From a virus (lineage: Duplodnaviria > Heunggongvirae > Uroviricota > Caudoviricetes): DNA of 5,041 nt. The number at the start of each line of letters is the position of its first letter. The stretch's first letter is position 1. The notes under the pieces were generated by a model. The model ran no database searches, was not told the DNA's origin, and saw only the letters and a program-made list of their open reading frames with translations. The stretch is taken from IMG/VR virus record IMGVR_UViG_2585427777_000011, positions 1 through 5,041 of that record. One strand, given 5' to 3'. A program made the translations under genes and the position numbers. Positions 1,535 to 1,573 of the stretch are shown in pieces.

Positions 1535-1573
1535 AAAACCCCGTTTGTTGGCAGCAAGCGGGGTTTTGTTTTT
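1535..1573 (+). terminator. Rho-independent terminator immediately downstream of the endolysin gene; possibly bidirectional
   Basis: Stem AAAACCCCG (1535..1543) pairs with CGGGGTTTT (1559..1567) and extends inward (TTTG/CAAG) around a 7-nt loop. It is followed by the T-tract TTTTGTTTTT (1564..1573). The A-rich run AAAAGTAAAAA just upstream would give a U-tract for the opposite orientation. Confidence 0.7.

Follow-up and report, generated by a model that had tools for sequence, protein, structure and literature searches.

In phage lambda, Q-modified RNA polymerase coming from pR' ignores the terminators that lie downstream. For Stx phages, the control of tR' by Q has been summarised previously (PMC7547250). 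The element described here, a putative terminator positioned between the endolysin gene R and Rz of a Stx-type lambdoid prophage, belongs to a kind that is already known, i.e., intrinsic terminators at the module junctions of Q-antiterminated late operons. It shares with lambda tR' and with the terminators flanking morons a GC-rich hairpin, a U tract, a location in the late operon downstream of Q and its placement at a module junction. Yet, in contrast to tR', it is found about 7 kb downstream of Q and inside the lysis cassette. Morons, as defined for HK97 and HK022, possess their own promoter and a downstream terminator. The genes situated between R and Rz (the cargo) resemble them in their presence/absence and swap polymorphism and in having an associated terminator; however, this terminator lies 5' and not 3' of the cargo, and no promoter was found for the latter. 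The small open reading frames (mini-ORFs) that make up the cargo look like late-operon genes relying on read-through rather than autonomous morons.

Several other short elements are known from the late region of Stx prophages, including PasA and PasC (between the esterase and holin genes), AgvB and AsxR (downstream of Q or stx), HnrS (EcOnc10–12) and StxS (between pR' and tR'). Like the element studied here, they end in an intrinsic terminator and are present in multiple copies in EHEC, but their positions, strands and sequences are different. In lambda, in the P21-type Qin cassette and in most relatives from Enterobacteriaceae there is no gap at the R/Rz junction, unlike in the sequence analysed here. 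Literature searches turned up no report of such a terminator in the R–Rz gap of Stx phages; one genome-architecture paper covers this cassette and makes no mention of the hairpin element.

A terminator-like hairpin behind the endolysin gene

The window, i.e., the whole stretch of DNA that was analysed (5,041 nt), represents the lysis region of a Stx-type lambdoid prophage. The features of its left part are as follows:

3–218: class II (phage-21-type) holin gene (Pfam PF04971)
223–567: YdfR/DUF1327 gene
911–1444, plus strand: endolysin gene R, phage-21 SAR type (Pfam PF00959 Phage_lysozyme, E 9e-24)
1445–1534, plus strand: non-coding spacer of 90 nt, the 3' UTR of R, common to all Stx-type copies
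1534–1538, plus strand: A tract AAAAA, 5' of the GC core; pairs with the first U residues and forms the U tract of the minus strand
1535–1567, plus strand: predicted terminator hairpin, with the 5' arm at 1535–1549, the loop (GGC) at 1550–1552 and the 3' arm at 1553–1567
1539–1543, paired with 1559–1563, plus strand: GC core of the hairpin (CCCCG/CGGGG), from sequence and fold
1564–1573, plus strand: T tract TTTTGTTTTT, 9 T of 10, from sequence and scan; putative release site

The N-terminus of the endolysin has a hydrophobic segment, as judged from its sequence, and the identical prophages of ST131 strains annotate R as lysozyme/rrrQ. On the minus strand, between the holin and endolysin genes, we also noticed an ORF of 90 aa (533–805) that overlaps the 3' end of ydfR and matches phrog_2411 (E 1e-58), a family with unknown function. 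It has counterparts in loci L005 and L007 and is absent from Sakai Sp10, and it looks like a separately transcribed insert within the lysis cassette.

Positions 1535–1573 read AAAACCCCGTTTGTT-GGC-AGCAAGCGGGGTTTT, followed by GTTTTT. The terminator scan returned a stem of 15 pairs (6 G-C) with a 3-nt loop, which is reduced to 11 pairs when the A-U extension is left out, in good agreement with the hairpin of roughly 13 bp with a GC core proposed in the initial annotation. It starts 90 nt after the TAA stop codon of the endolysin gene (1442–1444), again as proposed. An inverted-repeat search defined slightly longer arms of 16 nt (1535–1550 and 1552–1567) with 88% Watson-Crick complementarity; on the plus strand, the other positions form G-U pairs. 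The predicted RNA fold of this strand is stable. With 53 nt of context it reaches –21.4 kcal/mol (z –3.96), and with 48 nt –21.1 kcal/mol (z –4.63), and none of the 200 dinucleotide shuffles equalled it in either case. Seven terminator-like matches were detected in the window versus 4.8 ± 2.1 expected by chance, of which 1535–1567 is by far the longest. Thus, both the folding energy, which if weak would have spoken against the annotation, and the terminator prediction argue for a strong intrinsic terminator. The stem with its short loop, the U-rich tract directly 3' and the non-coding site downstream of a gene are all features by which intrinsic terminators are recognised.

An ORF of 70 aa (1522–1734) runs across the hairpin and was considered as a coding alternative. 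It is open in the window, in H-19B and in loci L003 and L007, and is interrupted by stop codons in L004 and L005; by eye, variants that are one A apart differ in frame. As this ORF is not conserved as a reading frame, we regard the hairpin as non-coding.

Distribution of the element and its absence from related cassettes

The 292-nt interval reaching from R to the first annotated small ORF, used as a query, is matched by 2114 of 5426 complete E. coli genomes, at up to 14 places per genome (median 2). The same interval matches 323 phage records, nearly all of them Stx-converting and H-19B among them, and the spacer-plus-hairpin query alone detected 316 phage records.

For a broader comparison, 153 loci with endolysin relatives were fetched from viral contigs and from one genome per species, and the window and BLAST-derived loci were added; R was located in 162 sequences, and the 260 nt past each R stop were scanned for terminators. 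Where R is at least 93% identical to that of the window, nearly all loci possess a hairpin and T-rich tail between about +88 and +122, and in most of them the hairpin is of one type. Among the 162 loci, no convincing terminator was found past the more distant R genes, which come from other Escherichia, Shigella, Trabulsiella, Citrobacter, Enterobacter, Klebsiella, Kluyvera and related genera. We inspected about a dozen of these, and there the stop codon of R either touches the next gene's start or overlaps it (a GTGA or ATGA junction); in K-12 Qin rrrQ overlaps rzpQ, in line with the view of the initial annotation that canonical cassettes have no terminator at this place. We take the P21/Qin-type cassette with overlapping R and Rz, on the basis of this comparison, as the ancestral state. 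Since the distant cassettes have neither gap nor hairpin, the R–Rz gap and the hairpin constitute a derived feature of the Stx-type lineage, within which the predicted terminator is the rule and not an anomaly.

Exchangeable stems at a single slot

BLAST coverage classes stop at two places, namely at query positions 86–97, at the motif AAGTGAATAAA that immediately precedes the hairpin, or at 129–132, right behind the T tract. Together with cargo that differs between phages, these breakpoints substantiate the earlier suggestion that the hairpin marks the edge of an inserted module. Besides the TTTTGTTTTT tract of the window, variants with TTTTGTGTTT, TTGCATTTT or TTTTTTGTGTTT were seen. The position is filled by one of three different stems, all of them with a T-rich tail:

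Main-type stem: CCCCGTTTG...CAAGCGGGG
L006 stem: CCCCGGCTG...CAGTCCGGGG; –20.4 kcal/mol
L007 stem: CCCGATTG...CAGTCGGG; –14.4 kcal/mol, tail TTTTTTGTGTTT

Among 34 main-type haplotypes, stem positions show 0–2 minor haplotypes, whereas the two central loop positions and the spacer patches show at least nine. Column-wise covariation in the MAFFT alignment is not significant (86.7% of cells paired versus 85.4% in shuffles; 2 pairs changed on both sides versus 1.6 expected), the main type varying too little for statistical support. The non-significance is partly explained by a bulge in the L006 stem, which shifts the register. The structural support for the predicted hairpin is therefore provided by whole-stem replacement, by the contrast between stem and loop and by strand asymmetry, and not by covariation statistics.

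Stem-weakening mutations were encountered in some copies, e.g., GCGAGG, with which the fold is weakened to –12 kcal/mol (z –1.7). In addition, where the cargo is an antirepressor gene, as in Sakai Sp10, VT2-Sakai and many Stx2a phages, another hairpin, AGGCACCGTAATGGTGCCT, is found at the slot, and its T tract is poor. On the plus strand of Sakai Sp10 this ant-type hairpin is weak or broken (–6.6 kcal/mol, z –0.3), and its commonest variant, a G-to-A change, pairs on the minus strand only. We considered it as a fourth terminator type and downgraded it on account of the poor T tract and of this pairing, so that it is not counted here with the main element; the G-to-A pattern hints at a minus-strand RNA or a DNA-level site rather than a plus-strand terminator. 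As judged from the weakened copies and from the weak or broken ant-type hairpin, maintenance of the hairpin is not universal. The ant-type hairpin was located at about 4880–4935 of L010 (Sakai Sp10) and occurs also in L035, L057 and L091, and a direct repeat, GCGCATCTCAC present twice, is positioned on its 3' side.

The spacer itself (1445–1534) consists of invariant blocks, AGCAGAATATTTTGCTGAAAAATG, GGATAACACGAAATCCTG and AAGTGAATAAA, with hypervariable patches between them, as revealed by the alignment and per-site variation. Across hundreds of phages the invariant blocks number three, one of them being a near-palindrome, AGCAGAATATTTTGCT, directly 3' of the R stop. Neither compensatory covariation nor a promoter or ORF that would account for the invariant blocks was detected in the spacer, and a conserved structure was rejected, RNAalifold giving invariant pairs only and zero compensatory changes. 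The blocks are as invariant as the stem and have no known structure; low variation alone is no proof of selection on the hairpin. The spacer probably serves as a homology arm for cargo exchange.

Cargo downstream of the hairpin

The region between the T tract and Rz contains four tightly packed mini-ORFs, designated A to D, and the window ends within a fusion gene:

1589–1594, plus strand: Shine-Dalgarno sequence GGGAGG of mini-ORF A, 15 nt past the T tract
1600–1734, plus strand: mini-ORF A, TTG start, 44 aa, one predicted TM segment (phrog_6632, E 1.4e-13)
1737–1868, plus strand: mini-ORF B, 43 aa, hydrophobic (phrog_4906, E 4.5e-21)
1865–1987, plus strand: mini-ORF C, 40 aa, with a GTG start overlapping the stop of mini-ORF B (GTGA)
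1999–2085, plus strand: mini-ORF D, 28 aa (phrog_4493, E 3.8e-6), ending 1 nt before the Rz start
2087–5041, plus strand: about 67 codons of the Rz N-terminus, joined in frame to tail-tip protein J, with the junction at about 2287/2288

In the ST131 annotation, mini-ORF B is listed as a hypothetical protein and mini-ORF A is absent from RefSeq. Mini-ORF C is a 5'-truncated copy of a 59–60-aa ORF of O157 prophages, the full-length form of which matches phrog_1115 (E 5e-41), and the TM segments of mini-ORFs C and D are paralogous. Pfam has no family for any of the mini-ORFs A–D, and their PHROG matches are all of unknown function. All four are tiny single-TM proteins. A part in lysis timing or envelope disruption is conceivable.

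The combinations of mini-ORFs vary from phage to phage. H-19B possesses a single homologue of mini-ORF A in the same place, O157 prophages carry the full-length form of ORF C along with another small ORF, and in L006 the slot is occupied by an unrelated small membrane ORF; the alternative cargo is the antirepressor gene. Ribosome-binding sites are present for the cargo genes and Rz, and the window scan detected no plus-strand promoter-like site between the hairpin and Rz (1574–2087). This absence implies that the mini-ORFs and Rz would be transcribed only via read-through, as the initial annotation had suggested for the downstream block.

The Rz-J frame is open to the end of the window, and BLAST coverage breaks at query position 108/109. 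Compared with the ST131 prophage, the fusion corresponds to an 18-kb deletion, in which Rz1 and the terminase, head and tail genes were lost. The junction was found in none of the 5426 complete E. coli genomes, which points to a rare deletion derivative or else to a join made during assembly. Owing to this deletion the prophage of the window is defective, and its terminator is probably an intact relic.

Late-operon context

The part of the window from 1400 to 2150 is 100% identical to a prophage of ST131/O25b:H4 strains, the gene context of which extends beyond the window. In this prophage (L001), the region is preceded by antiterminator, tRNA and sialate esterase genes and followed by terminase, head and tail genes. 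The antitermination gene, which is frameshifted, is located at 4345–5165, and a hairpin with TTTTTT is found at 5248–5263; thus, a Q gene and a tR'-like terminator are present upstream on the same strand, outside of the window itself. The late region of this intact ST131 prophage has comparable plus-strand terminators at 5248 (just after Q), 10536 (just in front of the holin gene) and 12136 (after R), and the region as a whole contains 20 terminator-like matches versus 11.9 ± 2.9 expected. With one terminator before the holin gene and another after R, the holin–YdfR–endolysin block is bracketed on the plus strand.

The L001 hairpin at 10536–10564, between the sialate esterase and holin genes, has 12 pairs and a TTTTTTT tail and lies about 40 nt before the holin start; the equivalent site falls just beyond the left end of the window. 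Published PasA sRNAs of other strains map to this same esterase–holin gap.

In H-19B, in Stx1a- and Stx2c-converting phages and in TL-2011c the element is located upstream of all virion genes, and therefore it must be passed efficiently in lytic growth.

Strand preference

The initial annotation had further regarded the terminator as potentially bidirectional owing to the A and T tracts on its flanks. This holds for the window copy, in which the minus-strand hairpin folds with –14.2 kcal/mol (z –2.29), a value reached by 2 of 200 shuffles, and has a UUUUUACUUUU tail, but the property is not conserved across the variants. The minus-strand hairpin is weaker because the G-U pairs of the plus strand turn into A-C mismatches there, and the plus-strand hairpin is better by 2–7 kcal/mol in all three main types. 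A minus-strand T tract is absent from L007 and from the ant-type hairpin. The window copy is thus potentially bidirectional in principle, with the plus strand clearly better.

On the minus strand, a promoter-like site was noticed at 1743–1714 (CTGACA, an 18-nt spacer and CACAAT, with an extended –10 TG). From the junction of mini-ORFs A and B it faces leftwards, to the minus-strand side of the terminator, and transcription from this site would yield an antisense RNA to mini-ORF A, about 140–170 nt in length. The site is not conserved in the H-19B or O157 copies, and such hits appear at chance frequency.

Alternative explanations

Instead of, or along with, releasing polymerase, the hairpin could act as a 3' stabiliser or processing barrier that guards the S–R segment of the mRNA from 3' exonucleases after cleavage further downstream. 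It is plausible that the holin-endolysin mRNA would then outlast the cargo, spanin and virion segments, with consequences for stoichiometry and lysis timing, and termination may coexist with such a role. The high stability of the plus-strand RNA hairpin fits this well, as does its position exactly at the 3' end of the S–ydfR–R block, which another hairpin brackets upstream, and the G-U asymmetry shows that the RNA structure of the plus strand is maintained. Yet, a pure exonuclease barrier would not need a T tract, and one is kept in all three main types; we consider this explanation unlikely. The hairpin could also function mainly on the minus strand, as a backstop for antisense transcripts arising from the cargo or from minus-strand morons beyond Rz, possibly as the end of an antisense RNA to mini-ORF A in the manner of type-I toxins, or as protection of R and S from antisense transcription. 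Small hydrophobic peptides are indeed encoded downstream, the window copy has a minus-strand fold with a UUUUUACUUUU tail and a promoter-like site about 140 nt away, and the H-19B and O157 versions each have one minus-strand promoter-like match at a distance of 40–160 nt. However, promoter-like matches are as numerous as expected by chance in all regions scanned and their positions are not homologous, the hairpin is weaker on this strand in the three main types with L007 devoid of a minus-strand T tract, and no Rfam antisense or toxin-antitoxin RNA family was matched, which makes a mainly minus-strand role quite unlikely.

Another possibility is that the 3' UTR of R (1445–1573, about 130 nt) is released on induction as an Hfq-binding sRNA, for which the terminator would be the Hfq handle. 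It would have many copies per EHEC genome, and the invariant GGAUAACACGAAAUCC block suggests itself as the part that would target host or phage mRNAs. The spacer has invariant blocks between hypervariable patches, and five A-R-N triplets (AAUAAAAGUAAAAAC) immediately precede a terminator whose U tail is long, an architecture typical for Hfq ligands, in which the A-R-N motif has been described (PMC4104026); other sRNAs are known from the lysis region, PasA lying before the holin gene and HnrS after Rz. Against this, nothing in Rfam 15, which includes AgvB and AsxR, matched any part of the window even at E ≤ 1, and the R 3' UTR coincides with none of the 63 orphan Hfq peaks of uninduced Sakai, as checked by coordinates for Sp10 (an ant-type copy) and deduced from spacing for the other prophages. 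In turn, the spacer displays no compensatory covariation, a search for a promoter was negative and lysogens keep the late operon silent, so that we judge an sRNA of this type very unlikely. A related proposal, which we rate as improbable, is that the R 3' UTR together with the terminator forms a multicopy induction RNA that binds Hfq via the A-R-N triplets and U tail and either regulates mRNAs or sets the stability of holin-endolysin versus spanin/virion mRNA; were it true, this RNA would influence lysis timing and Shiga toxin release. EPEC RIL-seq was rejected as an Hfq test, the three E2348/69 prophage lysis regions that were inspected being devoid of the spacer; their RrrD-type or unnamed lysozyme genes overlap an Rz-like gene. 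The Pas sRNAs (PasA–D) were likewise dismissed as the identity of the element, their sequences, positions and strands being different and the Pas probes absent, by eye, from the hairpin and spacer; the same applies to EcOnc10/11/12, suggested by the spacing from AgvB, which proved to be HnrS, downstream of Rz (EcOnc11 in Sp10). Finally, the hairpin could be a functionless scar or hitch-hiker, i.e., a site of illegitimate recombination, for which terminator-like inverted repeats with A and T tracts are favoured, or the end of a donor operon. Mosaic breakpoints on both sides of the hairpin, the decay of some copies, the non-significant covariation and the defective state of the window prophage would agree with such an origin. 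The near-invariant stem next to a variable loop, the occurrence of three stems with T tracts at one position and the G-U asymmetry in favour of the plus strand all oppose it, and we see little chance that the hairpin is such a remnant. Equally little credit is given to its persistence being due to Q-modified polymerase ignoring such repeats.

The hairpin as a probable terminator at the edge of a cargo slot

The explanation that we favour, and hold to be probable, is that the element is an intrinsic (Rho-independent) plus-strand terminator forming the 5' edge of a variable cargo slot between R and Rz. From its anatomy, distribution and breakpoints and the absence of promoters, we infer both termination and read-through as follows. 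Polymerase without the Q modification would pause on the U tract and be released by the hairpin. In a lysogen, such unmodified polymerase would be that which starts at moron, toxin, tRNA or spurious promoters, and the hairpin would block its leakage into the genes of membrane-active mini-proteins, the spanin and the virion. During lytic growth, Q-modified polymerase coming from pR' would read through, as it does at tR' and other late-region terminators, and everything downstream of the hairpin would thereby become strictly Q-dependent. The spacer and the 5' end of Rz, in turn, may act as homology arms for the exchange of cargo; arms flanking the slot in this way would explain why the mosaic breakpoints hug the hairpin. 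Two observations count against a shielding role. S and R, the most dangerous of the lysis genes, are located upstream of the hairpin and remain unshielded, and the terminator just upstream of the holin gene leaves few evident sources of unmodified transcripts at the hairpin.

The feature is common and unsurprising, and it leaves the current understanding of lambdoid late-gene control unchanged. If the favoured explanation is true, the lysis cassette of Stx phages would consist of a terminator-bracketed holin-endolysin block and a strictly Q-dependent block composed of tiny membrane proteins or an antirepressor, the spanin and the virion genes, with a recombination-prone cargo slot between. Present in about 39% of complete E. 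coli genomes, the hairpin element and the mini-ORFs have mostly been left unannotated, which makes them useful for prophage annotation. Likewise, the hairpin should be of use for interpreting RNA-seq and Term-seq data of EHEC late regions and the entry of accessory genes into lysis cassettes.
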